DNA of 51,592 bases from Bacteroidales bacterium (lineage in GTDB: Bacteria > Bacteroidota > Bacteroidia > Bacteroidales > WCHB1-69), in NCBI GenBank assembly GCA_012838875.1, contig DUOL01000037.1, forward strand, positions 1-51,592. Direction: 5' to 3'. Position 1 is the stretch's first letter; the number at the start of each line of letters is the position of its first letter. The notes beneath the pieces were generated by a model. That model made no database searches, had not been told where the DNA came from, and saw nothing but the letters and a program-made list of their open reading frames with translations. The translations under genes were made by a program, and so were the position numbers. Below are positions 1 through 39,677 of the stretch, one piece after another.

Positions 1-1571
1 AGCGTTCCGGCACCGAAAATTGTAAATGCCGTCATCGCTCCAATACCATGTTTTTTCTGAGTCGTTAAAATTGTGCCAATACCGGGATAGAGCATCGAAT
101 AGAACGCCGCCTCAGGTCCGACAAACCGCATCTTCTTTAAAGAAATATCCGTGAAAGAATGATTGTTAAACTTTTTATCCTTAACATTGAAAAAATAACT
201 CCCTGTGGGATAAAGCTCTGAAAATAAGATAGTGTCAATCATAGTAGCCCACGGAGCATCTTTTTTATGAATTTTAACTTTATATTGGTTAAATTTCGCT
301 ACCAACTCTTTGGTTTCCCAAATTAGAGATAGCTGAATTTGAGAACTCGCTTGTACAAAAATATTCTCTTTGGTAACCGGTAAAATATCGGGCGAAGATA
401 GCAACGAATCAATAAAAGCAACAAGTTTCTCCTTTTTAACTTTATAAATAGAAGTATCACAAATAAATGTGTCCAACAAAAATAGAGATTGATTTTTACC
501 AAGCGTATCAACCTTTATTTCAACTATTCCTTGTAAAGTTCCGCACGGCAAATCTTCTATAAATTTATTTAGCCAATCCTCAATTCTAGAATGCAAAGAG
601 TCCATAACAGCAGGGTACGCTTCATAATAATCAAAAATCTTTTTGTCTCGAATAGACAAAACTTCAATTTTCTTCTCAATTTCAACCAATTGTTCTTTAG
701 CAAACAGGTGAGACGAATCTAAAGTGATAATTTTTTCAAAACTCTCTTTAGCTTTATAAAATTGATTTTTCGCGAGGAAATTTTTCCCTTCTTCCAACAA
801 AAGTGCAACATCTCTGTTTTTAATTGCCAATTCAACTAATTTTCTCTTTTCATGGTAAATTTCTTCATATTTTTGAGGAGGAAAAGCGGAATCTAACTGC
901 GAAAAAGCCTTCTCAAACTCCCCAATTTCATATAAAGAATCTGAAAGCTGCAATCTATAAAGAAAATTTGCTTCCTGCAACTTTTGTTCTTCTATCTGTT
1001 TTATTTTATTTTCTTGATAAAGTTTCGCTTGTTCGGAAATTTCGGTAGGATTAAAATATAAAAATGTAAACTCTTTACTCTCTTCATCAACTCTTTCCGT
1101 AAAAATAGCATTTGAATTGGGAGTCATTTCAAATAGAAAAGTGCTCGTATTATCGTCTGTTTGGCTTGCGATAGGGTTCGGATAACTCGTTGTAAACTCT
1201 TGAAAAAGAATCTGATAACACTCTTCATTGATTGAAAGTTTCATAATATTATTAAAACCGGGGTTATCATACATTTTCAATAAAATATAATTGAAACTCA
1301 TCGTAAATTGCCAAACCGTCTCTCTATAGGATACGGTATCATTATCAAAAATTAATTGTTGCTTCTCCGTTTGTGAAATTCGTATCCATTTTGGCGGTGA
1401 AAGAATCTCATCCAAATGGTCAACATCATGCTGATAAATAACTTGTAAAATTTCAGTTGACAAACAGTTAGAGGGAGATTGAGCTTTTACAAACGACAGC
1501 GGAGAAAGAAATAAGAAAATTACTAATAATTGTAATTTTGCAATTGCATTATTTAAAGAAAACTGTTCCAT
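1..1571 (-). CDS. Hypothetical secreted/membrane protein, partial (C-terminus lies outside the window)
   Basis: Minus-strand frame is open from the ATG at 1571-1569 to nt 1. Hand translation starts MEQFSLNNAIAKLQLLVIFLFLSPLSFVKAQ... and is still open at the edge (...GIGAMTAFTIFGAGT). It is missing from the ORF track because it has no stop in the window. The N-terminus looks like a signal peptide. No family recognised. Confidence 0.7.
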   Translation of the reverse strand, partial: MEQFSLNNAIAKLQLLVIFLFLSPLSFVKAQSPSNCLSTEILQVIYQHDVDHLDEILSPPKWIRISQTEKQQLIFDNDTVSYRETVWQFTMSFNYILLKMYDNPGFNNIMKLSINEECYQILFQEFTTSYPNPIASQTDDNTSTFLFEMTPNSNAIFTERVDEESKEFTFLYFNPTEISEQAKLYQENKIKQIEEQKLQEANFLYRLQLSDSLYEIGEFEKAFSQLDSAFPPQKYEEIYHEKRKLVELAIKNRDVALLLEEGKNFLAKNQFYKAKESFEKIITLDSSHLFAKEQLVEIEKKIEVLSIRDKKIFDYYEAYPAVMDSLHSRIEDWLNKFIEDLPCGTLQGIVEIKVDTLGKNQSLFLLDTFICDTSIYKVKKEKLVAFIDSLLSSPDILPVTKENIFVQASSQIQLSLIWETKELVAKFNQYKVKIHKKDAPWATMIDTILFSELYPTGSYFFNVKDKKFNNHSFTDISLKKMRFVGPEAAFYSMLYPGIGTILTTQKKHGIGAMTAFTIFGAGT

Positions 1572-1596
1572 ATTTTATTTACTCTTTTTAATTAAA

Positions 1597-1604
1597 CAAA
1601 AATA
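1597..1604 (-). promoter_or_regulatory. Bacteroidota -7 promoter box (TATTTTTG on minus strand)
   Basis: The reverse complement of caaaaata matches TAnnTTTG, 26 nt upstream of the ATG at 1571. Confidence 0.4.
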
Positions 1605-1680
1605 CATTTTTTTAATAACAGAGAGTAAAATAAAAGTTAAAATTAGAAAAATAAACCTAAAAAAGTAGTTTTTTTCAATT

Positions 1681-2736
1681 TTATATGAAAGATTCGGCAA
1701 TTCTTTTCATTTCCGAAGCCACATTATTGCCTTCGTATAAAACCCCATAAATAGTTTCCACAATTGGAATTTTCAGGTTATATTTTTTATTAATCTCATA
1801 CACACAGCGACAGGAGTAGTATCCTTCGGCTATCATATTCATCTCAAGTTGGGCAATGCGAACCGATAAGCCGTGCCCAATCATATTCCCAAAAAGTCTA
1901 TTTCTACTAAATCGCGAATACGAAGTAACCAACAGGTCGCCGAGATAAACGGAGTCCGCCAATGTACGAGAGCTTGGGTAAAGCTGATTTACAAAATCTT
2001 TCATCTCTTTAACACAATTTGATATATAGGCGGCAATAAAATTATCACCATAGCCCAAACCGCTATAAATTCCGACTCCAAGTGCATAAATATTTTTAAG
2101 CACAATCGCCATTTCCACTCCCATAATATCACTCGACACGGAAGTTCGCACATAACGATTCGTAAACATTTTCGCAACTACTTCTGCCAGCTCTAAATTT
2201 TCAGACGCAACGGTAAGAAAAGTAAATTTTTCTTGGGCAATCTCTTCTGCGTGCGACGGACCGCTAACGATAGATAAATTTGAAACCGGAATATTAAATT
2301 CACTACGCAAATAATCGGTAATTACTTGCATTGTCTCCGGCACAATCCCTTTCACGGCAGTAACTATCTTTTTACGATTTAATTTACTTTTTTTAAGAGG
2401 CGCTAACGTATCGTGCAAAAACGCAGAAGGCGTAACAATAATAACATAGTCCGCTCTGGCAAGTGTTTTCCGCAAATCGGTGCTCACTTTTATCTCCTTA
2501 GGATTAAAAAAGATAGAACTCATATAGAGAGGATTATGACCATATTTATTAATTCCCTCCACAATTTCAGGTTCTCGCACCCACCAATGAATATGCTCTA
2601 AATTATCCGCTAATATTTTTACAATCGCCGTTGCCCAGCTCCCGCCTCCAATGACCGCTACACGATAACGCAAACGATGTTTCTTCTTACGTAGTGGCAC
2701 AGAACCGGTATCCATAGATAATGATTGTTCTTTCAT
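1681..2736 (-). CDS. gpsA: NAD(P)H-dependent glycerol-3-phosphate dehydrogenase
   Basis: Rossmann motif VAVIGGGSWATAIVKILA and GpsA-like length and layout. I prefer the ATG at 2736 (MKEQSL...) because the TTG at 2763 in the track overlaps a TAATTTTG promoter box. Confidence 0.85.
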   Translation of the reverse strand: MKEQSLSMDTGSVPLRKKKHRLRYRVAVIGGGSWATAIVKILADNLEHIHWWVREPEIVEGINKYGHNPLYMSSIFFNPKEIKVSTDLRKTLARADYVIIVTPSAFLHDTLAPLKKSKLNRKKIVTAVKGIVPETMQVITDYLRSEFNIPVSNLSIVSGPSHAEEIAQEKFTFLTVASENLELAEVVAKMFTNRYVRTSVSSDIMGVEMAIVLKNIYALGVGIYSGLGYGDNFIAAYISNCVKEMKDFVNQLYPSSRTLADSVYLGDLLVTSYSRFSRNRLFGNMIGHGLSVRIAQLEMNMIAEGYYSCRCVYEINKKYNLKIPIVETIYGVLYEGNNVASEMKRIAESFI

Positions 2737-2760
2737 AATATAGCTTCGTTTTTGGTTTTG

Positions 2761-2768
2761 CAAAATTA
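2761..2768 (-). promoter_or_regulatory. Bacteroidota -7 promoter box (TAATTTTG on minus strand)
   Basis: Matches TAnnTTTG about 25 nt upstream of the gpsA ATG at 2736. Confidence 0.4.
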
Positions 2769-2833
2769 AACATTATTTTGATACTCTATTAAAAAAAGTT
2801 AATTTTTAAATTTTAAAAACATTTTTATATCTA

Positions 2834-2881
2834 TTATTAGGGCGACGCCCCCGAGCGGAGCGAGGGGGCACGCCCTAATAA
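2834..2881. repeat. Hairpin-only copy of the GC-rich repeat family; possible terminator of the 2947-3843 gene
   Basis: The sequence ttattaGGGCGACGCCCCCGAGCGGAGCGAGGGGGCACGCCCtaataa is an imperfect palindrome. Its core matches the terminal module of the repeats at 16297-16460, 32048-32208 and 32379-32542. It lies just downstream of a minus-strand CDS. Confidence 0.75.
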
Positions 2882-2946
2882 AAATTATGAATTAAAAGTT
2901 ATAAATTAATAGGAACTTGTAATTTTTAAAAGGTCTATTCTTTCCT

Positions 2947-3843
2947 CTATTCGTCAAGTGAATATGTTCTTTTTATTTCATATAACTTACGATAACTTTC
3001 GGGATCTACCTCATCGGTAATGTATTGAGTTAATTGCTTGTTCTTGCCCGACTCGTCATAGATAAATTCCGTCCACGAAATTATTTTCTTATTTTTATCC
3101 AAAATAGATACTTTGATTACATTTTCCCCCTCATATTGGTATTGGGTGAGCTTATATTGGTTCAAGTCCTCCTCTTCGACCTCTACAACACGGTTTTCAT
3201 CATTATACTTTGTATAACTTTTACTTATTAATTCGTCGTTGTAATTGTAAATCAACTCTTTAACTCTATTATTTCTTTCATCATATTCGTAATCGTAGGT
3301 ACGTTTATCTTTTTCAAGAACTTCTATCTTAGTTGTTTGCTTCAAAGTTCCATTTTCGAAATAGGAGTACTCGAAAATATATTGCTCTTTCCCATCCTCA
3401 TTAAAATGTATCTCTTTAATTAACTGATTGTTATCATTGTAAAAATATTTCTTCTCAACTCCTTCCAAATCTTCTTCCACATAGGCTTCCTGCTGAATTA
3501 ATAAATTATTTTCGTAAACAAAACGAGTAACATAACACGGCGAGCCTTCTCCGTAGAAATTATTCTGTCGTTCGACTTTCCCATTCAAATTGTAGAAATA
3601 TTCTATCTTTTGCAGCAACTCTTCATTTTCGTCAAATTCCGAAGTAACTACTAGATGATTTTGTTCGTTATACTCATTTAACACGACTGAGATAATCTCT
3701 TTGTCGGGGGAAAAGTGTTCTTGTTTTACAATATTACCGGCTTCGTCGAAATGGAGTAGCATTTCCGTATATTGCTCCGAAATAATATCATCTTTTTGAT
3801 ATCCTACACGCAGATAATTAATTTTCTCAATTTTTTCAATCAT
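2947..3843 (-). CDS. Hypothetical cytoplasmic protein with YD/RHS-like degenerate repeats
   Basis: 298 aa with no signal peptide. It has recurring Y-x-Y-(N/D)-x-x-(G/N) units: YFYNLNGKVERQ, YFYNDNNQLIKE, YEYDERNNRVKE, TKYNDENRVVEV and FIYDESGKNKQL. Confidence 0.6.
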   Translation of the reverse strand: MIEKIEKINYLRVGYQKDDIISEQYTEMLLHFDEAGNIVKQEHFSPDKEIISVVLNEYNEQNHLVVTSEFDENEELLQKIEYFYNLNGKVERQNNFYGEGSPCYVTRFVYENNLLIQQEAYVEEDLEGVEKKYFYNDNNQLIKEIHFNEDGKEQYIFEYSYFENGTLKQTTKIEVLEKDKRTYDYEYDERNNRVKELIYNYNDELISKSYTKYNDENRVVEVEEEDLNQYKLTQYQYEGENVIKVSILDKNKKIISWTEFIYDESGKNKQLTQYITDEVDPESYRKLYEIKRTYSLDE

Positions 3844-3869
3844 TCTAAATCATTTTTAAATATAGACTG

Positions 3870-3877
3870 CAAAAGTA
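3870..3877 (-). promoter_or_regulatory. Bacteroidota -7 promoter box (TACTTTTG on minus strand)
   Basis: Matches TAnnTTTG 27 nt upstream of the ATG at 3843. Confidence 0.4.
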
Positions 3878-3890
3878 GTAGAAAAAACTC

Positions 3891-3898
3891 TATCTTTG
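3891..3898 (+). promoter_or_regulatory. Bacteroidota -7 promoter box (TATCTTTG)
   Basis: Matches TAnnTTTG 21 nt upstream of the ATG at 3919. Confidence 0.4.
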
Positions 3899-3918
3899 CA
3901 AGTGATAAAAAAAAGATA

Positions 3919-5337
3919 ATGAAATGGTTTAACGAATCTTATAAGAAGAAGGTCTTGTTAGGAGGCACTTTTTTAGGAGTTGTACTTATTTTTTTAGGTA
4001 TATTTTTCTATTATATTTTTTTCAAACAACATAATGCTAATTTAATAGAAACTGTACCGGTAGATGCGGCTTACATTTTATTATTAAATGATAATGAGAG
4101 TTTTAACAAAACATTGGCACAAGTTTCGCCCTTTTTAAATGAGGTTTTCTTTTTTGAGGCGTTTCAAGGTTGTCAATTTATCGTAAATAAAGCTCCCTCA
4201 AAACATCAAAAAAAGGAGAACAATATTATTGCGTCCGGTCATTTTGTTGAAAATAAGGGAGTTCTTTTATACTCTACTCAAATGTCGGAGTTAAATTTCA
4301 ACTCTTTACTCAATTCTTTGCAAATTGACCGCCGCAATTATGTAGAATTTGAAAAAGAGCGAATCTATACGTACGGAACACATTATAAACAGTTTTATTT
4401 TGTTTGTCATCACTCTCTATTTTCGATTAGTGAAAATCTATCTTTATTAAAAAAATCTATTCAGCAACACAAACAGTTACAAAACATTACTTCTAAAAAG
4501 GAGTTTAAAAAAGTGTATTCGATTACGGAAAAGAGTGAAAAACAGAATTGGATACTCTTTAATCATGCTATTTTTCTAAAGCAGGCGGCGACGCATTTGT
4601 CGTCTATCTATCGGACTCACTTAGCTTCATTTGCAGAAAAGAGTTCGTGGTCTGCCTATCAAATTTCGTTTTCTTCTTCTGAGATGTTTTTAAATGGTTA
4701 TTTTCATTCTCAGGATGATTTTTTCAATACTTTGAACGAGCCTTACACGCTACAACATTTTCCGGCTCAACATTTTCCATTTTCCACTTTTTATTATGGA
4801 ACGGTAGCGGGAGACAGCACGCATTTTCAGTTTAAATTACTACAGGACAGCGTTTTATTATCTTTTCTATTATTAAAAACGAATGAGCAGTATAGTACGC
4901 CCGAAGCTCTATTCCCCGTAGATTACTCTTTAGATTCTGCCACACGATATAAGAAACAACTAATTTATAAAATTGATAAAGAAAAGAAAAAGGAGATATG
5001 CACGAAAAATGCGACTTTTTATAATTACTTTAGTTATTCTAGCGGTTACTTTATTTTAGCAGATTCGATATCGTCATTGCAGAGCTACTTCGACCAACTT
5101 CACTCTAATTCTTATACTTTAGCCGATGCTCCTCTATACCGTTCAGTAGAAGTGAATTTACCTTCGGAAGTAGCTTCACAATTTGTCTTTTTATTATCAA
5201 ATTCCAATAATAAGAAAGAGTTTTGGAGTGATACGGAGACTTCCTCTTATTATTCGCAACACCTTACGGCACTTGCTTTTACATTTACGAAACGTAAAGA
5301 TGGAGTTATCGGTTCTCAAATTTACATCAAGTTTTAA
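3919..5337 (+). CDS. Hypothetical membrane-anchored protein
   Basis: The in-frame ATG at 3919 (MKWFNESYKKKVLLGGTFLGVVLIFLGIFFYYIFF) is followed by an N-terminal TM helix. The longer track ORF from 3772 would overlap the divergent gene and both promoter boxes. No family recognised. Confidence 0.65.
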   Translation: MKWFNESYKKKVLLGGTFLGVVLIFLGIFFYYIFFKQHNANLIETVPVDAAYILLLNDNESFNKTLAQVSPFLNEVFFFEAFQGCQFIVNKAPSKHQKKENNIIASGHFVENKGVLLYSTQMSELNFNSLLNSLQIDRRNYVEFEKERIYTYGTHYKQFYFVCHHSLFSISENLSLLKKSIQQHKQLQNITSKKEFKKVYSITEKSEKQNWILFNHAIFLKQAATHLSSIYRTHLASFAEKSSWSAYQISFSSSEMFLNGYFHSQDDFFNTLNEPYTLQHFPAQHFPFSTFYYGTVAGDSTHFQFKLLQDSVLLSFLLLKTNEQYSTPEALFPVDYSLDSATRYKKQLIYKIDKEKKKEICTKNATFYNYFSYSSGYFILADSISSLQSYFDQLHSNSYTLADAPLYRSVEVNLPSEVASQFVFLLSNSNNKKEFWSDTETSSYYSQHLTALAFTFTKRKDGVIGSQIYIKF

Positions 5338-15388: not shown

Positions 15389-15396
15389 TATTTTTG
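15389..15396 (+). promoter_or_regulatory. Bacteroidota -7 promoter box (TATTTTTG)
   Basis: Matches TAnnTTTG 16 nt upstream of the ATG at 15412, implying a very short leader. Confidence 0.3.
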
Positions 15397-15411
15397 CATA
15401 AAATATACATT

Positions 15412-16284
15412 ATGAGTAATTTAAAGACTATTGTTGCTATTGCTTACGACTTTGACGGCACGTTAGCTCCGGGCTACATGCAAGAGTATGATTTTATTCC
15501 AAATATTAAGATTGCCAATGAAGATTTTTGGGATAAATCGGATAAACAAGCAGCCAAACATGACATGGACGGCGTGCTTTCATACATGCTGTTAATGCTT
15601 AAGAAAGCAAAAGAGAACAACATTTCGATAAAAGAGGAGAATTTTATTAATTACGGTAAAAGCATACAATTTTTTGAGGGTGTTGAAGGTTTTTTTGACA
15701 GAATCAACAAATACGCCGCCACAAAAAACATCTTATTAGAGCACCATATCATCTCCTCGGGGTTAAGAGAATTTGTTAAAGGAACAACTATCGCAAAACA
15801 TTTCAAAAACATCTTTGCATCGGGTTTTACTTACGATGAGCAGGGAGCTGCCTGTTGGCCTGCGCTGGTCGTTAACTACACAAATAAGACTCAATTTCTT
15901 TTTAGAATCAACAAGGGCATTAACAATGCGTATGACAACTCTCTGATTAACAAGAGAATACCTGAAGAGCAAAAGGTTGTACCTTTTGAAAATATTATTT
16001 ACATTGGAGACGGAGAAACTGATGTCCCTGCCATGAAGATGGTCAAGTTGCAAGGTGGAACGGCTATTGCCGTGTACAATCCGCATGTAAAAAAATCCAA
16101 AAATGGAGAATTGACTCCTCGCGAAGTCTGCAAAGGATTGATTGAAAATGATAGAGCCGATTATCTAGCGCCTGCAAATTACTCTGAGAATCAAGAACTT
16201 GACATTATTCTTAAGAAAATCATTGATAAAATCAGTTCTGAAATTGAATTGCAAGAGCTGAAAGAGGCAATTATGAAGAGGTAG
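15412..16284 (+). CDS. HAD-superfamily hydrolase
   Basis: Motif I is DFDGT (AIAYDFDGTLAP) and motif IV is GDGETD (IYIGDGETDVPAM). The ATG at 15412 is preferred over the TTG at 15394, which overlaps the promoter box. Confidence 0.7.
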   Translation: MSNLKTIVAIAYDFDGTLAPGYMQEYDFIPNIKIANEDFWDKSDKQAAKHDMDGVLSYMLLMLKKAKENNISIKEENFINYGKSIQFFEGVEGFFDRINKYAATKNILLEHHIISSGLREFVKGTTIAKHFKNIFASGFTYDEQGAACWPALVVNYTNKTQFLFRINKGINNAYDNSLINKRIPEEQKVVPFENIIYIGDGETDVPAMKMVKLQGGTAIAVYNPHVKKSKNGELTPREVCKGLIENDRADYLAPANYSENQELDIILKKIIDKISSEIELQELKEAIMKR

Positions 16285-16296
16285 AAGTTTTCGGTT

Positions 16297-16460
16297 GCGT
16301 GAGGCGCTTAGGTGGAAAGCCCGCAAGGGCGGAAGCCGCTGGGGACGCGGCGGCAAAAAAGCGAGCTTGTAAGCTCTTTTTGCCGCTTTGCGTCCCCACG
16401 GCTTGTGCCCGCGGACTTGTAACCGGGCGCCGACCCCGAGCGAAGCGAGGGGGCACGCCC
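16297..16460 (+). repeat. GC-rich structured repeat, copy A (full length, forward)
   Basis: 164 bp running from GCGTGAGGCG to GAGGGGGCACGCCC. It aligns block by block with 32379-32542 and with the reverse complement of 32048-32208. It lies between convergent genes. Confidence 0.85.
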
Positions 16461-16579
16461 TAATTATAAATATGATTATTATAAATTTAAAAATTAGGCT
16501 AAATATCTTGTTGTGTGCCTTAGAATTAATAATAAAATGCCTTTGTGTCTTCGTTAAGAGAGAGAGTCTTTTAATTCCT

Positions 16580-17803
16580 TTAATCGTGTGACGGTTTATT
16601 AGTATCAGCAACGGCTTCGTAGAAACTCTCGATTTTTTTGGTAATGACCTCATTATTATGCTTTAACATAACAAAATTGCGGGCATTTTCTCCGATAATT
16701 TTGCAAATATCGGGAGTATTGAGGCATTGTTGAAGAGCAGCTATAAATTCTTCGGCGTTAGAAGCTATGAAAATATTCTTTCCGTGTTCGATTTCAAGTC
16801 CTTCTGCACCAATCGGAGTAGTAATAATAGTTTTCCCAAGCGCCATTCCCTCAATTATTTTCACTCTAATCCCGCTCCCTGCCAAAATAGGAACAATCAT
16901 AATGTCATGCGATAACATAAATTCATTCACGTTCTCTATTTCACCAACAACATTAACGTTAGGATAGCCTTTGTCAGCAATAGATTGAGGGATATGCCTT
17001 CCGGCAATAGTGAATGTTAAATTAGGGAAATGTTCGACTATTTCATACCAAATTTCATCTAAAAACCACTGAATACCTTCAAGATTGGGTTGCCAATCGA
17101 GGCTGCCGAGATGAAAAAGCGAGGGATTATCCGATGGGATATAATCTTCAGGTTTATAATTTTGTAAATCAACGCCGAAAGGAATGGTGGTCGCCGGTAT
17201 ATCAGGGAATTTACTGTGAAAATATTCAAAATCGTGCGAAGAAATCGGCATATAACCATGGATATGGTTAAACGTGGATAATTCGACCTTTTTAAGTTTC
17301 TTGGTCAACGAGGTAAAGATTAACTTTTTAAATATGGAAGATTGCTGAGCGGTACGTCTTTGCCATATTTTATGCTCGATATTGTGTGTTCGCAATATGA
17401 TTTTTGCTTTACTATGACGTTTAATAATAGGAATGTAAGGAGTTACAAAAATAGATTCCAATTGTACTATATCGAAAGTCTCTTTTGAAAAAATCTCAAC
17501 CAGTTTTTTTTCCAATTCTTTAGAATAGAAGCGACTTATATAATACGAGCGGTTGAATAGCATCGTTTTAAAAATCTTAAAAAGATTTGTTCCCGTATTA
17601 ATAAAAACAGTTTCAAATTTAGTTTTTTTATAATAATCGGCATCTAAATCTTTACTATTTACAGGATGTTTTGGTGTTGAAATAGCTACAACTTTAACTT
17701 GATGGTTCTGCTGTAAAAGTCCTTGCGTAATGTTATTCATTGCGATGCACCCTCCATCTTTCGGGGGCAAGGGCGGTTTATGGCAAAGTTGTAAAATTTT
17801 CAT
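16580..17803 (-). CDS. Glycosyltransferase, family 4 (GT-B, Glycos_transf_1)
   Basis: The C-terminal half carries the typical EGMALGKTIITTPIGAEGL motif. Length and layout fit GT4. Confidence 0.8.
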   Translation of the reverse strand: MKILQLCHKPPLPPKDGGCIAMNNITQGLLQQNHQVKVVAISTPKHPVNSKDLDADYYKKTKFETVFINTGTNLFKIFKTMLFNRSYYISRFYSKELEKKLVEIFSKETFDIVQLESIFVTPYIPIIKRHSKAKIILRTHNIEHKIWQRRTAQQSSIFKKLIFTSLTKKLKKVELSTFNHIHGYMPISSHDFEYFHSKFPDIPATTIPFGVDLQNYKPEDYIPSDNPSLFHLGSLDWQPNLEGIQWFLDEIWYEIVEHFPNLTFTIAGRHIPQSIADKGYPNVNVVGEIENVNEFMLSHDIMIVPILAGSGIRVKIIEGMALGKTIITTPIGAEGLEIEHGKNIFIASNAEEFIAALQQCLNTPDICKIIGENARNFVMLKHNNEVITKKIESFYEAVADTNKPSHD

Positions 17804-31794: not shown

Positions 31795-31816
31795 CTTGAT
31801 ACATTTTAATTATCTG

Positions 31817-31824
31817 CAAAAATA
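31817..31824 (-). promoter_or_regulatory. Bacteroidota -7 promoter box (TATTTTTG on minus strand)
   Basis: Matches TAnnTTTG 23 nt upstream of the ATG at 31794. Confidence 0.4.
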
Positions 31825-32047
31825 ATAAAAATTAGATTGAAAATACCTAATTTTTTTAGGATAAATTGGTGTAACATTATTTTTTATTGTTTTTTACTTA
31901 GTTAAACCTTCGTTTTTATTCTATTTTCCTTCGCTTAACTTTTACCTTTTCCCTGATTTTAAAACAGATAGCATAAATTATAAATTTTATATTAATACTT
32001 TTACTTTATATCACACAAAAGGGGAATAATAATTATATTTTTCTTGG

Positions 32048-32208
32048 GGGCGTGCCCCCTCGCTTCGCTCGGGGTCGGTCTCCGCCTCCAAGTCCGCAGG
32101 AAGGAGCTATGAATAGCATAGTCGAAAAAGGAGCTTCTAAAGGCGCTCTTTTTCTCCTTGCTCTTCAAAGCTCCTTCCTTTGCGGGCTATCCGGCTGCGC
32201 CCTCACGC
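32048..32208 (-). repeat. GC-rich structured repeat, copy B (full length, reverse orientation, most diverged)
   Basis: The reverse complement reads GCGTGAGGGCGCAGCCGGATAGCCCGCAAAGG...CGACCCCGAGCGAAGCGAGGGGGCACGCCC. It has the same block order as copies A and C, but with different stem sequences. Confidence 0.8.
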
Positions 32209-32378
32209 ACGCCAAGTTGCTTGTACAGAACTATTTAGGTCGAAAGTAGAGAGTGGAAAATGACCCCCGAAGAGGTAACATGATAATAAAATAAGTTTGG
32301 ACTAAAACCCTTAATATCAGTATAATAACGCCGTCCACGACTTGAAAGTTGCGGCAATTGTTATGAGAAAGATCTCCT

Positions 32379-32542
32379 GCGTGAGGCGGGAGGCGGAAAG
32401 CCCGCAAGGGTGGGAGACGCTGGGGACGCTGCCGCAAAAAAGCGACCAGCGGAAGCTCTTTTTGCGGCTTTGCGACCCCACGGCTACCGCCCGCGTACTT
32501 GTAGCCGTACGCCGACCCCGAGCGTAGCGAGGGGGCACGCCC
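32379..32542 (+). repeat. GC-rich structured repeat, copy C (full length, forward)
   Basis: 164 bp, the same length as copy A, running from GCGTGAGGCG to GAGGGGGCACGCCC. Confidence 0.85.
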
Positions 32543-32688
32543 AAATTATAATTATTATTAAAAAAACAGAAAATAGATACAATAACGATAGCAATTGCAA
32601 CGATTAAAAATATTTTGTCGGAAAACTCGTTTCTCTTAGATGTGTAAAATATTGATACGATTTTATTAATTAACTTAAAATTATTTTT

Positions 32689-34281
32689 ATGCTGAAAAAA
32701 ATAGGTTTTATTTTTGTTTTTACATTTTTTACGCTTTTTTTGTTCTCCCAATCTTTTACTACGCTTGAAGATTTTCAATGCACTTCGGTTACGGTTGGGA
32801 AAAAAGCATCAAAAGACGGGTCTGTCATGACTTCACATTCTGACGACAGTCATCGGTCGCGTACGGATATTTCCGTTGAGCCGGCTAAAACTCACCCTGC
32901 CGGCAGCATGCAAACGTTATATAAACGCACCACTGCAAAGCCTGAAAAGAACAAAATGCCTCGTTATGAAAATGTGGAAGTGGGAAAAATACCACAAGTT
33001 AAAGAGACTTATCAATTTTTAAATTCGGCATATCCTTGTCTAAACGAGGTACAATTAGCCATCGGTGAATCCACCTTTAGCGGTCGTCCTGAGCTTCGTT
33101 CCGATAATGGACTGATTGATTGTCCTTGTTTATGTATGCTTTTAATGCAACGTTGCTCCACCGCCCGCGAAGCCATACGCACCGCAGGCGAATTACTCAA
33201 AGAGTACGGCTGGATAGATGCGGGTGAATGTTTAACCATTGCCGACAAAAATGAAGTTTGGCATCTTGAAATTGTAGGTCCCGGGAAAGGGAAAAAGGGA
33301 GCCGTTTGGGCGGCACAACGCGTTCCTGACGATCATATATCCGTTAACGCTAACGCTTCACGAATTTTAGAAATTGATACGAAAAATAAAGATTACTTTA
33401 TGTTTTCCGACAACGTTTTCTCCGTTGCAGAAGAAAATAATTGGTACGACAAATCGCAAGGAGCTTTTCGTTTTGCTTACGCCTACGCACCTGAAAGCAG
33501 AGCTATGCTTGCCTGCCGAAGACGTGAATGGCGTGTCTTCGACCTTTTAGCACCCTCTCTACGCTTAGACCCAAATTCCGAAAACTATCCATTCTCCGTA
33601 AAACCGGACTCTCTCGTTACCCTTGACGATATGGTGCGTGTCTTCAAAGATTATTATGAAGGAACCGAATTTGATATGCGTAAAAATATCACCGTAACCG
33701 ACAGAGACGGTAAAACCGTCATTTCACCTTTTGCAAATCCGTTTATGAAAGTGGACGAATTAAAATTACATAAGGTAAACGGCGGCTGGCATGGCTTAGG
33801 GGAAAGAGCTATTGCCGTGCATTTCACCGTATATGCTACAATTATCCAGTGCCGCGACTTTTTACCCGATGAAGTGGGTGGTGTCTGTTGGTTCGCCCTG
33901 GATAATGTTGCTTCATCAATTTATATTCCAATTTACGGTTCTGTTACAGACCTTCCCGATACGTATAAAACTTGCGGACGAATAACCGGTTTTAGTAAAG
34001 ACGCTGCTTGGTGGGCTTTCAATAGATTAGGAACTATAACAGCTAAACGATGGGGCGATATGCATAAAGTAGTAGACGACGTTTGGAATCCTTTACAAAC
34101 TTCCTACTTTCAACAACAGAAAAAAATCGAAAAAAAGGCTCTCTCTTTGTTGAAAAATGAAGGAAAGTCAGCGGCGATTAACTATTTGACACGCTATACT
34201 AATGATTGCGGCATAGAAGTCGTGGAAAAAGCATGGCTCACCGGCGATTTAATATGGACCACCTTTGACGGTCGTTGGTAA
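32689..34281 (+). CDS. C69-family dipeptidase
   Basis: Signal peptide followed by the nucleophile context QCTSVTVGKKASKDGSVMTSHSDD, typical of Ntn-type C69 peptidases. The 530-aa length fits. Confidence 0.8.
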   Translation: MLKKIGFIFVFTFFTLFLFSQSFTTLEDFQCTSVTVGKKASKDGSVMTSHSDDSHRSRTDISVEPAKTHPAGSMQTLYKRTTAKPEKNKMPRYENVEVGKIPQVKETYQFLNSAYPCLNEVQLAIGESTFSGRPELRSDNGLIDCPCLCMLLMQRCSTAREAIRTAGELLKEYGWIDAGECLTIADKNEVWHLEIVGPGKGKKGAVWAAQRVPDDHISVNANASRILEIDTKNKDYFMFSDNVFSVAEENNWYDKSQGAFRFAYAYAPESRAMLACRRREWRVFDLLAPSLRLDPNSENYPFSVKPDSLVTLDDMVRVFKDYYEGTEFDMRKNITVTDRDGKTVISPFANPFMKVDELKLHKVNGGWHGLGERAIAVHFTVYATIIQCRDFLPDEVGGVCWFALDNVASSIYIPIYGSVTDLPDTYKTCGRITGFSKDAAWWAFNRLGTITAKRWGDMHKVVDDVWNPLQTSYFQQQKKIEKKALSLLKNEGKSAAINYLTRYTNDCGIEVVEKAWLTGDLIWTTFDGRW

Positions 34282-34285
34282 TATA

Positions 34286-34325
34286 TTTCTCAAAAGGAAT
34301 TGAAATTAATTGTATTTTTGAGAAA
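34286..34325 (+). terminator. Hairpin terminator candidate after the C69 dipeptidase gene
   Basis: TTTCTCAAAA and TTTTGAGAAA form a 10-bp stem around a 20-nt loop, 5 nt after the stop codon. The 3' arm overlaps a TATTTTTG box (34313-34320). Confidence 0.4.
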
Positions 34326-34453
34326 CTATTATCACAACCTATCAATTTACATAAAACACTAATAATCAATGGAATGAAATTTCAAAATCTACTTCTCTTT
34401 TGATTTCATTCTTCGATTTTAAAAAAAGAAATAACTTTAAATACAATTATAAT

Positions 34454-36229
34454 ATGTTCTCTTTGATAAAAAAACAAATTTTTACCGCTTTTATTTTCAC
34501 CGCATTCTTCTTATTTTCTTTTAAAATAGTAGCTCAAAACAATAGTTTTGCCGTTAACAATAGCAAAATGACGCAGTTTTTAAGGCAGATTGATGATCTT
34601 TATATTGACACTGTAAATTTTGACAAATTAGTAGAAAATGGTATTGTTGAGATTCTAAAGGAGCTTGACCCGCACTCTATTTACATTCCAAAGAAGGACG
34701 TTCAGCAAATGAACGAGCCTCTACAAGGTTCATTTGACGGGATAGGTGTTACTTTTCAGCTTATTAAAGACACTATTAACATTACCGAAGTAATTGTCAA
34801 CGGACCGTCAGAAAAGGTGGGGCTCTTAGCAGGGGATAAAATCATTAAGGTTGACAGCTTAGATGCAACCGGAAAAAAAATCAACAATAAGTGGGTACAA
34901 ACGCATTTACGTGGGAAGAAAGGGACAAAAGTGGTTGTTTTAGTCAAAAGAGGAAAAAATAAAACCCCGCTTGAGTTCACGATTATTCGCGACAAAATCC
35001 CTATGAATAGCATCAATGTTGCTTTTATGGTTGATTCTGTAACGGGTTACATTAGATTAGAACGATTTGCACAGACCTCGCCCAGAGAATTTAGAGAAGC
35101 TATAGGAAAGCTAAAAAGCGAGGGATTAAAAAATCTCATTTTCGATTTACGGGGTAATGGTGGCGGTTATTTAGATGCCGCTTTTAAAATTTCCGATGAG
35201 TTTATAAAGAAAGATTTGATGATTGTCTACACCGATAATTTCAGAAAAACAGGACAATCTTTTCGAGCCACAGAAGTTGGAAATTTTGAAAATGGGAAGT
35301 TAATTATTTTAGTTGACGAGGGGTCGGCTTCAGCGAGTGAAATTGTCTCCGGTGCCGTACAAGACTGGGACAGAGGTATCATTATGGGACGAAGAACATT
35401 CGGAAAGGGACTCGTGCAAAAACCGATTTATCTCCTCGACCAATCGATGATAAGATTGACAATTTCCAATTATTACACCCCTACCGGCAGATGTATTCAA
35501 AAACCGTATAATGACGGATTAAATAACTACTTCCGCGAACTTCAAAATCGTCAAAAGCACGGAGAATTTTTAAATGCCGATAGCATCTCTTTTCCCGATT
35601 CTCTCAAATATACAACCCCGCGAGGTAGAATTGTTTATGGAGGAGGCGGAATTATGCCCGATATTTTCGTTCCAATAGATACAAGTAAATACTCTTCATT
35701 TTTTAATGAAATGATACGAAAAGGTGCCTTCGGTGAATTTACCATGGAATATATGGAAAAACATCGTGATGAGTTGAAAAAGGAATATCCGACTTTTATT
35801 GACTATAAAAACAACTTCAATATCTCCGATAAAATGTATGACGAGTTCATGACTTTTGTCAAAGGGAAAGGTATTGCCGATACAGTAGCTTTTAATTTTG
35901 CTAAAAAAGTTGAAACTTTTGGACGAACCGAAAAAAAGAAATTAGATTCTCTCTTTACAACATTGGAGACTTTTGAACGAAAAAAAGAACAATTTGAAGA
36001 TCTATTAACGGATTATCTCAAAACTTCTTACGAGGAAGCAATAAAATTGAGAAATCTCTCTAAGGTTCCTGAGTTCACGAAAGAGTATCTTAAATTTGAA
36101 ATTGGACGTACTCTTTACAGCTATGGACAGGCATACGAAATTTTCCTTTTGAGTGACGATACTTTTTTACAAGCCTATAAAGCAATTAAAGACGATAGTT
36201 TATTTAAAAAATACAATGTAGATTTATAA
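34454..36229 (+). CDS. ctp: S41-family C-terminal processing peptidase
   Basis: PDZ-like region (GPSEKVGLLAGDKIIKVD) plus S41 motifs (DLRGNGGGYLDAA, VDEGSASASEIVSGA). The ATG at 34454 (MFSLIKKQIF...) gives a signal peptide. Confidence 0.85.
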   Translation: MFSLIKKQIFTAFIFTAFFLFSFKIVAQNNSFAVNNSKMTQFLRQIDDLYIDTVNFDKLVENGIVEILKELDPHSIYIPKKDVQQMNEPLQGSFDGIGVTFQLIKDTINITEVIVNGPSEKVGLLAGDKIIKVDSLDATGKKINNKWVQTHLRGKKGTKVVVLVKRGKNKTPLEFTIIRDKIPMNSINVAFMVDSVTGYIRLERFAQTSPREFREAIGKLKSEGLKNLIFDLRGNGGGYLDAAFKISDEFIKKDLMIVYTDNFRKTGQSFRATEVGNFENGKLIILVDEGSASASEIVSGAVQDWDRGIIMGRRTFGKGLVQKPIYLLDQSMIRLTISNYYTPTGRCIQKPYNDGLNNYFRELQNRQKHGEFLNADSISFPDSLKYTTPRGRIVYGGGGIMPDIFVPIDTSKYSSFFNEMIRKGAFGEFTMEYMEKHRDELKKEYPTFIDYKNNFNISDKMYDEFMTFVKGKGIADTVAFNFAKKVETFGRTEKKKLDSLFTTLETFERKKEQFEDLLTDYLKTSYEEAIKLRNLSKVPEFTKEYLKFEIGRTLYSYGQAYEIFLLSDDTFLQAYKAIKDDSLFKKYNVDL

Positions 36230-38188
36230 ATGATATCCAGACAAACTATTGATGAGATTCTTCTTGTTGCTAAAATTGAAGATGTAGTACAAGATTTTGT
36301 CGCTTTGAAAAAGAGGGGACAAAATTGGGTAGGTCTCTGTCCTTTTCATGATGATAGAAATCCGTCAATGTATGTTAGTCCTCGTCTTGGAATTTATAAA
36401 TGTTTTGTTTGTAATGCAGGAGGGAATGCCGTTAATTTTTTAATGGAATATGAAAAAATCTCCTATCCCGAAGCTCTCCGTTATTTAGCTAAGAAGTATA
36501 ATATTCAAATTCAGGAAGAGCGTGAATTGAGTGATGAGGAAATGTTAGAGAAGACAGAAAAAGATTCTCTTTTTGCGCTCAATGCCTTTGCCGAAAACTA
36601 TTTTGTTGAACAGATGCATAATACTGAAACAGGACAAGCTATCGCTCTCTCCTATTTTAAAGAACGCGGTTACAATAATGCTACTATTCAACATTTTAGA
36701 TTAGGTTATAATCCTGATGAATGGGATGCTTTCACCCAAGAGGCAATTAAAAACGGCTACAAAATCGACCATCTTTTAAAAGTTGGACTTACAAAAAAAA
36801 CTGAAAATAATAAACTTTTTGATTTTTACAGAGGGCGTGTTATTTTTCCGATTCATAACACCATGGGAAAAATAGTCGGCTTCGGAGGACGTACCCTTAA
36901 AAAGGATGACAAAATTGCCAAATATTTCAACTCGCCGGAAAGTGAAATCTACCATAAAAGCAATATTCTCTATGGATTTTATTTTGCAAAAAAAGCAATC
37001 AGAGCGAAAGATAATGTCTATTTAGTTGAAGGATATACAGATGTTATTTCTCTTTATCAAGCCGGTATTCAAAACGTTGTTGCCTCTTCCGGGACGGCAT
37101 TAACCGAAGGACAAATCAAGATTATCCTATCACAAACACAGAATATTACGATTCTTTATGACGGCGATAAAGCGGGCATCAAAGCGGCTTTACGCGGCGT
37201 TGATATGCTGCTGCCAACGGGATTGAACGTACAAGTTGTTCTTTTACCGGACGGCGAAGACCCCGACTCCTTTGTAAAAAACAAAAGAGACTCTGAAGTA
37301 GCTGATTATCTTGAAAATAATGCAGTTAATTTTCTATTGTTCAAGGCTGAATTACTCTCAAAAGAAGCCGGAAAAGACCCGATTAAAAGAGCTGAAGTGG
37401 TTTCTGAAATTGTCGAAAACATTGCAGAAATTAGAGATAATCTCGTCCGTGCCTTTTATATTAAAGAGTGTGCCAATCTCTTTCAAATAGAGGAAAATAC
37501 TTTGAACGTGCAACTGCGAAAAATCGTTTGGAGAAAACTTCAAAAAAGAGATAAAAATAGTAAACCCGAAGTTTTACCACAGACTATAACAACGCCAACT
37601 CCACAAAAAAAAGAATTTGAAGAGAACTTACTCAATATCATTGAAAAAGATATTATTCTGCTTATTCTCAAATACGGAATGTATGAAATTGCTGTAGAAA
37701 AAGATTCGGACTATTCTATAATGCGTATTGACCAATATATCTTCAATGAATTTCACGAAGATGAAATATATTTTAGTCAACCGTTTTTCCAAACTCTATA
37801 CGAAGAGTACGCTCTTATTGCCTCCGTAGCTAGAAATCAAGACGAAATTAAACGTTATTTCTCTCAACATGAAAACCAAGAAATCCAGCAATTTGTTATT
37901 CCCTATTTTTTAAGTCCTTCTCCTAGTTTTAGTGAAGAATGGGAAAAACGTTTTGACGTATTTACACACAGTAGCACCAATAATATTGAGAAGTTAAACG
38001 GAGAAATTATTGACCATATCAACATGTTCAAATTACGTATTATTGAAAATTACAGGAAATTATTGGATGTTGAACTTAAAGCCGAACATGACTCTGAGAC
38101 AACGACAATTATTTTAGAAAAATATATGAAAGTTATTCAACGAAGAAATGAATTAGCTGATTTATTGGGCATCGTTATCACAAAATAA
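36230..38188 (+). CDS. dnaG: DNA primase
   Basis: CHC2 zinc finger (CPFHDDRNPSMYVSPRLGIYKCFVC) and TOPRIM (LVEGYTDVISLYQAG, YDGDKAG). Confidence 0.93.
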   Translation: MISRQTIDEILLVAKIEDVVQDFVALKKRGQNWVGLCPFHDDRNPSMYVSPRLGIYKCFVCNAGGNAVNFLMEYEKISYPEALRYLAKKYNIQIQEERELSDEEMLEKTEKDSLFALNAFAENYFVEQMHNTETGQAIALSYFKERGYNNATIQHFRLGYNPDEWDAFTQEAIKNGYKIDHLLKVGLTKKTENNKLFDFYRGRVIFPIHNTMGKIVGFGGRTLKKDDKIAKYFNSPESEIYHKSNILYGFYFAKKAIRAKDNVYLVEGYTDVISLYQAGIQNVVASSGTALTEGQIKIILSQTQNITILYDGDKAGIKAALRGVDMLLPTGLNVQVVLLPDGEDPDSFVKNKRDSEVADYLENNAVNFLLFKAELLSKEAGKDPIKRAEVVSEIVENIAEIRDNLVRAFYIKECANLFQIEENTLNVQLRKIVWRKLQKRDKNSKPEVLPQTITTPTPQKKEFEENLLNIIEKDIILLILKYGMYEIAVEKDSDYSIMRIDQYIFNEFHEDEIYFSQPFFQTLYEEYALIASVARNQDEIKRYFSQHENQEIQQFVIPYFLSPSPSFSEEWEKRFDVFTHSSTNNIEKLNGEIIDHINMFKLRIIENYRKLLDVELKAEHDSETTTIILEKYMKVIQRRNELADLLGIVITK

Positions 38189-38198
38189 ATGAAATAAT

Positions 38199-39677
38199 AT
38201 GAAAAACAAATTAGTCGTACATAATACTTTAACGAAGAAAAAAGAGCTATTTACACCTATTCACAAAGATTATGTGGGTTTATATGTTTGCGGTCCGACT
38301 GTTTACGGAGAACCTCATTTAGGACATGCACGTCCCGCAGTTACTTTTGATTTAATATTCAGATATTTACAACATTTAGGTTATAAGGTACGCTACGTCC
38401 GCAATATTACCGATGTAGGGCATTTAGAAAATGATGCGGACGAAGGTGAAGATAAAATTGCTAAAAAAGCCCGTTTAGAACAACTTGAGCCGATGGAAGT
38501 TGCTCAATTTTACATTGACAGCTATCATATTGCGATGGACATGCTTAATGTAAAACGTCCTTCCATTGAGCCTCGTGCTTCCGGACATATCATTGAACAA
38601 ATTGAGATGATTCAAAAAATTCTCGATAAAGGTTATGCGTATGTTTCAGAAGGCTCGGTCTATTTTGATGTAGAAAAGTTTGATAAAAATTACGGCTACG
38701 GCAAGCTGTCCGGACGTGTATTAGAAGAGCTTTTTTCTAATACAAGAACACTTGACGGACAAGATGAAAAACGAAATCCCGCCGATTTTGCACTCTGGAA
38801 AAAAGCAACTCCTGAACATATAATGAAATGGAGTTCCCCTTGGAGCGTAGGTTTTCCGGGTTGGCATATAGAATGTACGGCGATGAGCACCAAGTACTTA
38901 GGCGAACATTTCGATATTCACGGAGGCGGGATGGATTTACTCTTTCCACATCATGAATCCGAAATCTGTCAAAGTACGATTGCTAACGGCGTTGAATCAG
39001 TGAAATATTGGCTACACAATAATATGATTACTATTAACGGTCAAAAAATGGGTAAATCCTTAGGAAATTTCATTACGTTAAATGAATTTTTCACAGGTAA
39101 TCATGCCCTATTAGAGAAAAAATACTCCCCCATGACGATTCGTTTTTTCTTACTACAAGCTCATTATCGAGGGACACTTGATTTCTCTAACGAAGCGTTA
39201 ATAGCTGCCGAAAAAGGCATGAACAAATTATATGCGGCATTTGAGACATTAAGCCGCTTAAAAATCAATGATACTCCTACTGAAAAAGCTCATCTTGATT
39301 GGGTTGAACGATGCTACGAAGCTATGAATGATGATTTTAACAGCCCCAAAGTTATTGCCGAACTTTTTGAAGCCACGCGACTTATCAATTTAGCACAACA
39401 AGGAGCAATTCACTTTAATCATGAAGAAATAACCGAATTTAAAAGAAATTTTGAGCTTTTCTTTTTTGATATTTTGGGTATGAAACGTGAAAATGCCGAA
39501 AACAACAACCAAGATTTAGTTGAACAACTGATGCAACTAATTTTACAAATTCGTCAACAAGCCAAAACAGATAAAAATTGGGAAATCGCAGACGCTATCC
39601 GTCAACAACTCAACACAATTGGAATTACTGTAAAAGATACTAAAGAGGGGGCTACTTGGGAAAAAGATGTTAACTAA
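38199..39677 (+). CDS. cysS: Cysteine--tRNA ligase
   Basis: HIGH-type motif (PHLGHARP), KMSKS-type motif (KMGKSLGN) and WHIECTAMS. Confidence 0.93.

Follow-up and report, generated by a model that had tools for sequence, protein, structure and literature searches.

Contig DUOL01000037.1 of a Bacteroidales bacterium (assembly GCA_012838875.1, positions 1 to 51,592 of the forward strand; this whole stretch of 51,592 nucleotides is referred to below as the window) carries several GC-rich islands, which are true copies of a single undescribed and very abundant intergenic repeat family of about 164 bp in the genome of an uncultured anaerobic-digester Bacteroidales bacterium. The family is abundant, intergenic and non-coding, and it possesses a strand-specific fold that is under selection. 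It is a relative of the bacterial repeats of the REP/BIME/BOX/MITE type (REP, repetitive extragenic palindrome; BIME, bacterial interspersed mosaic element; MITE, miniature inverted-repeat transposable element), and it is neither a gene, nor a terminator, nor a known RNA.

The window contains four occurrences of a 27-nt terminal module, CCCCGAGCGNAGCGAGGGGGCACGCCC, compared to none in 100 dinucleotide-preserving shuffles. A first-pass annotation, made from the letters of the window, had placed three full copies (A, B and C) and a "stub" (2834-2881) there; all four sets of coordinates are correct, copies A and C are 164 nt and copy B 161 nt in length, and the four are members of one repeat family:

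2840..2875, plus strand: short form (the "stub"), a 36-nt near-palindrome, GGGCGACGCCCCC-GAGCGGAGCGA-GGGGGCACGCCC, with inverted A/T arms around it (about 2826-2892)
16297..16460, plus strand: copy A, type 1, full length, 164 nt, with the GCGTGAGG head at the 5' end, a long rod, and the terminal module at the 3' end
32048..32208, minus strand: copy B, type 2, full length, 161 nt; arms different, fold the same; A/T tail at about 32031-32047; nhmmer E-value 3.1e-40
32379..32542, plus strand: copy C, a type-1 variant, full length, 164 nt; A/T tail to about 32559; nhmmer E-value 2.4e-43

The nhmmer match of copy A (E-value 1.9e-49) spans model positions 1-163, and the type-2 sequence of copy B recurs at many further loci. 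The predicted RNA folding energies are -105.7 kcal/mol for copy A (z -7.1), -85.9 kcal/mol for copy C (z -3.4) and -76.1 kcal/mol for copy B (z -4.6). With three full copies and one short copy in 51.6 kb, the density is about one per 13 kb, which by extrapolation implies a few hundred copies per genome.

The family extends well beyond the window. A metagenome scan with a 22-nt pattern yielded at least 120 stretches, and the family counts given below rest on the matches listed; the collected contigs and loci are labelled by L-numbers (L001, etc.). Among these matches, the stretches with descriptive record names derive from activated-sludge assemblies, and the rest are JGI and ENA metagenome contigs. 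The further copies that the first-pass annotation had proposed to look for are indeed present: nhmmer identified at least 112 full-length copies, at no fewer than about 90 distinct intergenic sites, and at least 67 additional partial copies that stop at a contig end, as is typical of a repeat that breaks assemblies. The tail was matched at least 137 times in the metagenome loci, and after removal of orthologues at least 95 different 3' flanks were counted. Copy length is sharply defined, at 161 nt (B-type) or 163/164 nt (A/C-type).

No overlap with an open reading frame (ORF) of 100 aa or more is seen in 68 of 76 copies. Conserved in-frame coding across copies, which the first-pass annotation had named as an observation that would speak against a folded element, was not found: none of the frames stays open throughout the 67 unique copies, and the best one is open in 51 of them. 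A peptide-coding repeat (RPE-like) was rejected, since there is no common open frame and the lengths (161, 162, 163, 164 and 165 nt) differ by non-multiples of three. Among 48 fully classified copies, 14 lie between convergent genes, 11 (23%) between divergent genes and 23 in tandem contexts, the latter comprising 7 co-directional and 16 anti-directional copies; a co-directional upstream gene is missing for half of the copies. These counts therefore show neither a preference for the 3' ends of genes nor a fixed orientation. When partners were sought within 800 nt, an inverted head-to-head partner was found 56-266 nt away in 26 of 79 full copies, as in the B/C pair of the window.

The consensus structure was derived from an alignment of 29 diverse copies. 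A helix (GCGUG/CACGC) closes a long rod with interruptions, and a side hairpin, CCCC-GA-GC-GNA-GC-GA-GGGG, is placed on the 3' side. The head pairs with the 3' end (GCGTG with CACGC in the DNA), whereby one strand forms a three-way junction that bears a rod of about 125 nt, variable in sequence and always paired, and a small, very stable hairpin. The order of separate hairpins described in the first-pass annotation has accordingly to be redrawn as one long rod, closed by 5' GCGUG and 3' CACGC, with one 3' side hairpin. Two local hairpins that had been part of that description, the small AGCCC-GCAA-GGG hairpin and a "second hairpin" with a GCGGACTT loop, receive no support at the level of the family; 68% of their cells pair, which is not above shuffles.

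The broader claim of selection on a folded nucleic acid is strongly supported. The paired cells amount to 97.6%, versus 37-50% after displacement of the 3' partners by 1-3 columns. Changes on both sides are present in 21 of the 51 pairs, and none of 500 column shuffles matches the observed pairing, the double-change count or the covariation score. The swap from G-C to C-G, described originally for the inner stem of the window copies, holds for the family (columns 56 and 89 are GC in 18 sequences and CG in 6), and the replacement of the A-type outer stem by the B-type stem is likewise real. Stem segments are swapped whole for unrelated complementary ones (AGCCGGGAGGCG/CGCCTCCCGGCT, AGGAAGGAGCT/AGCTCCTTCCT and AGTAGCAGGCTT.AGGGG/CCCCTAAGCCTGCTACT), and the copies are mosaics in which outer, middle, inner and apex variants reassort. 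The normalised mutual information of the paired segments is 0.92 for the outer, 0.89 for the middle and 0.74 for the inner segments, compared to 0.47 between the outer arm and the apex, which is located between the outer arms; the linkage of pairing segments about 115 nt apart exceeds that of adjacent segments. Recombination alone should loosen linkage with distance, and the distant pairs stay linked, which therefore argues for selection for pairing.

Counted over related copies, such that the events are not independent, the paired columns of 69 distinct sequences contain 93 G-T cells in 8 columns, some of them frequent, versus 7 A-C cells in 6 columns, all of them rare, and predicted stability favours the head-to-tail strand over its complement in 58 of 67 copies under RNA parameters and in 66 of 67 under DNA parameters. 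The asymmetry between G-T and A-C, together with the strand stability, therefore indicates that one particular strand folds.

The apex of the terminal hairpin is an exact match to both consensus forms of mini-hairpin DNA, GCGNAGC or GCGNNAGC. In the alpha tails the apex reads GCG-N-AGC, with A, T, C and G all present at N, and in the beta tails it reads GCG-NN-AGC, with AC, TC, TT or CC at NN. The consensus sequences d(GCGNAGC) and d(GCGNNAGC), with any N, are extraordinarily stable as DNA and far less so as RNA, with a melting temperature (Tm) of 39 °C for r(GCGAAAGC) versus 83.5 °C for one DNA mini-hairpin (PMC13037366). The motif is known from sites of single-stranded DNA (ssDNA) priming (the phage G4 origin and ssiA) and from the promoters of the phage N4 virion RNA polymerase, and it binds single-stranded DNA-binding protein (SSB) poorly (PMC13037366). 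The pyrimidine-pyrimidine loops of the beta tails do not fit the GNRA rule of RNA. The DNA-type loops, the lack of a constant promoter or terminator and the random orientation thus tilt the balance towards single-stranded DNA, rather than RNA, as the relevant fold, although they do not constitute proof.

Each full copy has a constant 5' head, (T)GCGTGAGG, and a constant 3' module, CCGACCCC-GAGCG-N-AGCGA-GGGGGCACGCC(C). A second allele of the terminal hairpin (beta), CCCG-TGAGCG-NN-AGCGAA-CGGG, occurs in nine bystander copies. The 3' boundary is sharp: past CACGCC, about 17 nt of A/T-rich sequence are conserved (CTAATAAAAATTAAAAT or CAAAAGAAAAATAAAAT), after which similarity ends. The conservation of the AT-rich 3' flank, already suspected from the window copies, holds for these 17 or so nucleotides over at least 95 non-orthologous sites. 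A semi-conserved motif, (C)ACTGAAAGATATAAATCAGGAnAT, is seen 25-55 nt past the tail at some 15-20 loci (e.g., L007, L058, L117 and L113).

On the head side, a 26-nt module X (TAAATGGCTCTGTACGAGCAAGTTGG) is encountered, and 52 of the 54 X-like matches are directly 5' of a head. Beyond module X, small recurrent modules appear in varying combinations. The module AAAAAGTTGACACTTTTTGTTATACATATTAC, which contains a perfect TTGACA, is found upstream of X in L018, L022, L033, L041, L060, L075, L116 and L134; other recurrent head-side modules are CTTTTGCTACAATCATGTCACCCCTTCGGGGTTAGTTTTGAATTTTTAG, the hairpin GAGAATGGCAnnnnTGCCATTCTC and GTACTTTTGTCTTGATACAAAAGTAC, and their order varies. Module X was considered as a promoter needed where a co-directional upstream gene is lacking, and this was rejected, as no association was found (13/27 versus 10/21). 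The corresponding parts of the window copies are as follows:

16425..16460, plus strand: core of copy A, a near-palindrome of 36 nt, GGGCGCCGACCCC-GAGCGAAGCGA-GGGGGCACGCCC, whose apex bears the mini-hairpin motif GCGAAGC
16461..16477, plus strand: conserved A/T-rich 3' tail of copy A; information content is above background for about 17 nt beyond CACGCC (95 non-orthologous sites)
32209..32378, no strand assigned: mosaic spacer of 170 nt, which separates the two heads of the inverted B/C pair
32212..32237, minus strand: module X (TAAATAGTTCTGTACAAGCAACTTGG), immediately 5' of the head of copy B

Spacers that resemble the mosaic spacer between copies B and C are present at loci L027, L045, L053, L069, L092 and L094. 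Locus L097 contains, next to a copy of the element, a tandem array (1430-4562) whose units of about 840 nt are 92-94% identical.

The 36-nt core, GGGCGCCGACCCC-GAGCGNAGCGA-GGGGGCACGCCC, is terminal in every full copy and also stands alone as a short form (at 2840-2875 of the window and in L122 and L065). The "stub" was rightly assigned to the family; far from being a random fragment, it is a near-palindromic short form of 36 nt that recurs at independent loci with an identical 5' end. The short forms (the one in the window, L122, L065 and L090) start at a single position of the full element (GGGCGCCGACCCC...), and inverted A/T arms flank the 36-nt near-palindromes. The short form L044 has a perfect 15-nt inverted repeat, and L065, L109, L122 and the one in the window are similar. 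L109 is a doublet of two inverted cores.

The family was compared with the known systems that it resembles. The definition of REPs includes a tetranucleotide, GTAG or CGTC, that is conserved at one palindrome end (PMC3733652). No such end tag was found in the alignment, in which the ends read GGGCG... and ...CACGCCC, and because of this the family is not a member of the REP/RAYT group (RAYT, REP-associated tyrosine transposase). The other part of the REP description, an extragenic imperfect palindrome of 20-40 nt in high copy, applies to the 36-nt core at its no fewer than about 90 intergenic sites. Like the REP, REPIN and BIME repeats of Enterobacteria and Pseudomonas, which are mobilised by RAYT proteins of the Y1 type, the family comprises high-copy extragenic repeats built on such a palindrome, with frequent inverted doublets, mosaics with small motifs, recombination hot spots and single-strand folding. 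Unlike them, it usually comes in units of about 164 nt that have an asymmetric head and tail and fold into a three-way junction, and there is no sequence similarity. In its mode of working it is closest to the BIME/REPIN repeats and to structured repeats of the BOX/ERIC type, and in genomic appearance it recalls the GC clusters of yeast mitochondria.

Terminal inverted repeats of the kind that define MITEs are present in the short forms (15 nt and perfect in L044), whereas the full-length ends share only GCGTG/CACGC and the 5' boundary is variable. A classical MITE was rejected, given that no target-site duplication at the short forms that were examined, no parent insertion sequence (IS) with the same ends in 1.2 Mb and no empty site were found.

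BOX of Streptococcus pneumoniae, ERIC and Correia are structured, modular intergenic repeats whose mobilisation is unknown or indirect. The family is similar to them in its length of about 100-200 nt, its intergenic location, its long imperfect hairpin and its copy number of about a hundred or more per genome, and also in its modular build, in this case X, then body, then tail. It differs in its unrelated sequence, in forming GC-rich islands in AT-rich Bacteroidales, in ends that are conserved across phyla and in a 3' hairpin of the mini-hairpin-DNA type; moreover, neither a TA duplication nor long terminal inverted repeats were seen in its full-length form. The yeast mitochondrial GC clusters are organellar, eukaryotic and 30-60 nt in length. 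They share the character of GC-rich palindromic islands in AT-rich intergenic DNA, with several subfamilies, rearrangement hot spots and mobility, and they have no sequence relation to the family. The integron attC sites (e.g., the Vibrio VCRs) likewise have ends conserved in sequence, a body conserved only in its fold, and one strand that folds; the family, however, is devoid of R''/R' boxes, cassette arrays and an integrase, and its orientation is mixed. Membership of the attC group was rejected: the ends are GCGTGAGG and CACGCC, and the copies lie scattered between housekeeping genes, in either orientation. In the case of mini-hairpin DNA (PMC13037366), we are dealing with a structural motif and not with an element family, and the apex of the family fits both of its forms, with N free.

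Searches of databases and the literature agree with the failure of the first-pass annotation to recognise a known RNA family. No Rfam 15 family reaches its gathering score in the window, and at 11 loci of other lineages none was found at the elements, the sole match being an unrelated signal recognition particle (SRP) RNA; below the threshold, only generic hairpin and miRNA matches were obtained. The SRP RNA is of the bacterial small type and lies at 1540-1634 (minus strand) of L017, about 1 kb from a copy of the element, in a Bacteroidia lineage of 55% GC. A blastn search in distant mode with copy A against plasmid and phage collections gave no match, and the sequence strings of the family did not occur in the searched literature.

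Comparison between strains reveals rearrangement at the copies. Contigs that carry the glycosyltransferase, the 151-aa ORF or the RHS-like ORF all keep the element at the same tail junction. Their head-side sequence differs, with the HAD gene in the window versus module X and other modules and other genes elsewhere. The copies are located at strain-level structural breakpoints. The crossover points are scattered: near the head in L128, mid-rod in L134 (a truncated copy joined at GGCGGC) and within the hairpin in L020. At the gpsA junction, the window and all 10 other contigs with the neighbouring gene have the 36-nt short form. L020, a SPAdes-style contig, is 99% identical over 2.85 kb, yet at this junction it has a full-length element with X and another left flank; the window and L020 share only about 20 nt of sequence at the switch point. 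This polymorphism is hard to explain as mis-assembly. Between the orthologous copies L011 and L102, the hairpin arms are exchanged. As the scattered crossovers, the gpsA polymorphism and the arm exchange show, the elements act like hot spots for ectopic recombination or for template switching. In the flank-based search for empty sites, only the polymorphism between short form and full-length element at gpsA and the hairpin-arm variants were found. The nearest homologue of the glycosyltransferase is 62% identical, and therefore no cross-species nucleotide alignment is possible at that site; in a relative of the GC-rich lineage (DnaK 92% identical), the intergenic region is fully diverged.

Outside the host, the distribution is patchy. 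Among 185,579 species-representative genomes, a 24-nt tail pattern was found at two sites only, both in one metagenome-assembled genome (MAG) of a rumen Treponema. The bare 19-nt hairpin CCCCGAGCGNAGCGAGGGG is a generic, stable one that 47 unrelated viral contigs also contain, and its cross-phylum significance was consequently rejected. Specific to the family are the hairpin together with the closing helix (CCGACCCCGAGCGNAGCGAGGGGGCACGCC, about 29 nt) and the head GCGTGAG. The same end modules are found in the 55%-GC Bacteroidia lineage (DnaK 84-87% identical to MAGs designated "Bacteroidia bacterium") and in the rumen Treponema (MAG RGIG10158), with different bodies. In both of these lineages the versions have other hairpin bodies (112-141 nt, and 215 nt in one case), compensating changes of their own and an A-rich 3' flank; versions of 116-127 nt with the same ends are found in the 55%-GC lineage. 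The three-way junction, GCGUG-A-GG ... CC-GA-[CCCC GAGCGNAGCGA GGGG]-G-CACGC with an A-rich tail, is common to two distant Bacteroidia lineages and a Treponema, with unrelated bodies. The 164-nt form is absent from 117 kb of relatives (GpsA 78-86% identical to that of the window host; DnaK 92% identical in the GC-rich lineage). The sole member in these 117 kb is a diverged one of about 90 nt (L155, 4468-4553, minus strand), with the same head and 3' end, an A-rich tail and an apex hairpin, TTTTGCGAAGCAAAA, capped by GCGAAGC; the relative that carries it has a GpsA 78% identical. In view of this copy, the family extends beyond what the exact tail pattern of the scans can capture. Patchy distribution, conserved ends and free interiors form the pattern that mobile elements display. 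As for the viral loci (L158-L204), stem-GAGCGNAGCGA-stem hairpins are observed in many unrelated IMG/VR contigs, several per contig in L161, L166, L189 and L203, and as a repeated unit in L163, L168, L177 and L183.

We consider the family, at a probability of roughly 0.45, to be a selfish or mobile repeat that folds as single-stranded DNA, of the REP/REPIN/BIME kind and with an architecture of its own. The functional fold would be the single-stranded DNA of the head-to-tail strand, and the conserved junction and hairpin may form the recognition site of a putative trans-acting enzyme, which would disperse the element or would once have done so. Ectopic recombination or gene conversion between copies would reshuffle the modules and produce the mosaics, and selection would purge those reshuffled copies whose pairing is lost; any influence on neighbouring transcripts, for instance by protecting RNA 3' ends or by acting as a roadblock, would be secondary. 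The first-pass annotation had suggested a REP/BIME- or MITE-like element mobilised by a RAYT/IS200-type transposase. The kind of element is borne out by the dispersed intergenic sites, random orientation, inverted pairs, mosaics, short palindromes and patchiness; the RAYT/IS200 link is not, in that no Y1-type ORF in 1.6 Mb, no GTAG/CGTC tag and no skew-related orientation bias were found. Of the features of palindrome-associated elements derived from IS200/IS605, unlike ends and a strand-specific fold are present, whereas no orientation bias relative to local GC skew was seen and no TnpA was found in 1.6 Mb.

Several observations weigh against such a mobile repeat. In the window there is no transposase or recombinase, and Pfam analysis of all large ORFs identified housekeeping genes only. 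No parent element was apparent, as 1.2 Mb contain no IS-like multi-copy segments; internal repeats of more than 500 nt in the same 1.2 Mb were considered in this role, and these are only paralogous genes of proteins secreted by the type IX secretion system (T9SS). A phmmer search of 5,418 ORF segments in 1.6 Mb with IS200 TnpA and YafM as queries detected no Y1/RAYT-like ORF, which is a weak negative. No clean empty site or target-site duplication was found, and all contigs with the flanking genes of the window carry the element on the tail side; direct repeats are likewise missing around the short forms that were examined. Orientation shows no bias with respect to local GC skew (28 versus 25), whereas a mechanism dependent on the lagging strand might show one. 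The 5' boundary is ill-defined, with module X in about half of the copies and more mosaic modules farther out. Some of the head-side differences between contigs may be assembly chimeras, since the repeat is longer than the 141-nt k-mer indicated by "k141" contig names. Finally, the tolerance of G-T, the tandem G-A pairs and the conserved internal loops fit RNA equally well.

A structured RNA family, read from head to tail, would account for these last features; it would be either a paired-termini small RNA or a cis module that protects or processes its transcript, and we regard it as rather unlikely and as less likely than the REP/BIME-like repeat. On this reading, proteins would bind at the three-way junction, at the internal loop (AAAGCCCGCAA / GCGGACUUG) and at the tandem G-A hairpin. 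The covariation is extensive and strand-specific, with G-U tolerated and A-C not, unpaired nucleotides are conserved within an otherwise variable rod, and the versions of the GC-rich lineage and Treponema are compact multi-hairpin folds of about 112-127 nt with compensating changes of their own; module X and the TTGACA module upstream of many heads could be promoters. The orientation relative to the neighbouring genes is nevertheless random, only about half of the copies carry X, irrespective of how the upstream gene is oriented, and no conserved promoter or terminator was found, the 3' end being A-rich and not U-rich. More than 90 near-identical copies would be unusual for a trans-acting RNA, the beta loops (GCCA, GUCA, GUUA and GACA) break the GNRA rule and fit the DNA rule GCGNNAGC, and Rfam offers no match. 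The suggestion that such RNAs act as terminators or insulators fails on anatomy. A Rho-independent terminator or a transcriptional insulator between genes is very improbable, notwithstanding the very stable GC-rich intergenic hairpin, the position of copy A between convergent genes and the T-run that follows the bare hairpin CCCCGAGCGNAGCGAGGGG in a few phage contigs (L165, L187 and L203). The tract of about 17 nt after the hairpin is A-rich and not T-rich, which therefore precludes an intrinsic terminator, and the short forms are T-rich before the hairpin on both strands, which is the reverse polarity. Moreover, the 23% of copies between divergent gene starts and the excess of anti-directional copies in tandem contexts are contrary to such a function, and a scan for terminator-like features showed no enrichment (13 found versus 14.6 expected).

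A DNA site recruited by the host, comparable to the BIMEs, is improbable, less so than a terminator and more so than an RNA. It would bind gyrase or a nucleoid protein, extrude a cruciform or hairpin, or prime single strands, and would persist through selection and concerted evolution, not through transposition. The mosaic modular organisation with inverted pairs is indeed that of BIMEs, mini-hairpin motifs are found at primase-dependent initiation sites on ssDNA and bind SSB poorly (PMC13037366), and the tail junctions are stable in all contigs of the species. The absence of the 164-nt form from the sampled close relatives and the occurrence of its ends in an unrelated phylum fit horizontal spread better, however; a priming signal on the lagging-strand template would be expected to show the orientation bias with GC skew that is lacking, and a role purely as duplex or cruciform is hard to reconcile with the strand asymmetry. 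A site for site-specific recombination, folded as ssDNA or palindromic in the manner of attC or lox/dif, with two inverted arms of about 13 nt around an 11-nt GAGCGNAGCGA spacer, would explain why strains differ in sequence on one side, with the tail flank constant and the other side varying. It would also suit the conserved ends, variable folded body and strand specificity known from integron attC sites, the crossover inside the terminal hairpin (L020 versus the window) and the hairpin arms exchanged between the orthologous copies L011 and L102. We consider it very improbable all the same: RYYYAAC/GTTRRRY boxes, cassette arrays in a single orientation and a nearby integrase were not found, and the crossovers are spread along the element (L128, L134 and L020), which fits ectopic homologous recombination or template switching.

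The genes around all four copies in the window are ordinary chromosomal ones: gpsA, ribBA, lptF/G, a glycosyltransferase, TonB-dependent receptors, dnaG, cysS and secDF. The best named matches of the GpsA and of the glycosyltransferase belong to MAGs labelled "Bacteroidales bacterium", in keeping with an uncultured Bacteroidales host. Copy A begins 13 nt past the stop of a HAD-like ORF (15394-16284), and a gap of 119 nt separates it from the stop of the ORF for the glycosyltransferase (16580-17803). Two minus-strand ORFs, 16165-16653 (162 aa) and 32317-32778 (153 aa), run through copies A and C, respectively; they are most likely artefacts of a stop-poor GC-rich repeat, which could be mis-annotated as genes. 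The large ORFs at 9364-31794 are all on the minus strand and those at 32689-42788 all on the plus strand, cumulative GC skew has its minimum at about 31-33 kb, and the inverted B/C pair is situated exactly at this switch in gene orientation and skew. The switch, at about 31800-32700, could be origin-like, an inversion breakpoint or an assembly join; beyond the position of copy C, other contigs have different genes. Towards the right end of the window, a 60-nt inverted repeat (43603-43662 / 50656-50715, 80% complementary) connects an OmpA/PD40-like gene with the GC-richer end, within which there is also a 46-nt direct repeat (50499-50544 / 50853-50898). Both are probably paralogous coding repeats.

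For the Bacteroidales, in which few such repeats appear to have been described, the family provides a well-defined repeat with a covariation-supported structure and an alignment at hand. It breaks short-read assemblies, gives rise to spurious ORFs and is located at breakpoints, and it therefore matters for the quality of MAGs and for the study of structural variation in digester and rumen communities. The shared junction may, with low probability, be the recognition module of a horizontally moving system with a foldable body, either a non-Y1, hairpin-dependent class of ssDNA mobile elements or a widespread class of structured RNAs; the family would rank far higher if the junction defined such a new mobilisation system or RNA class. 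With its strand-specific fold, its textbook DNA mini-hairpin and its ends shared across phyla, it presents a tractable case for asking whether REP-like elements spread as ssDNA, and by which enzyme.

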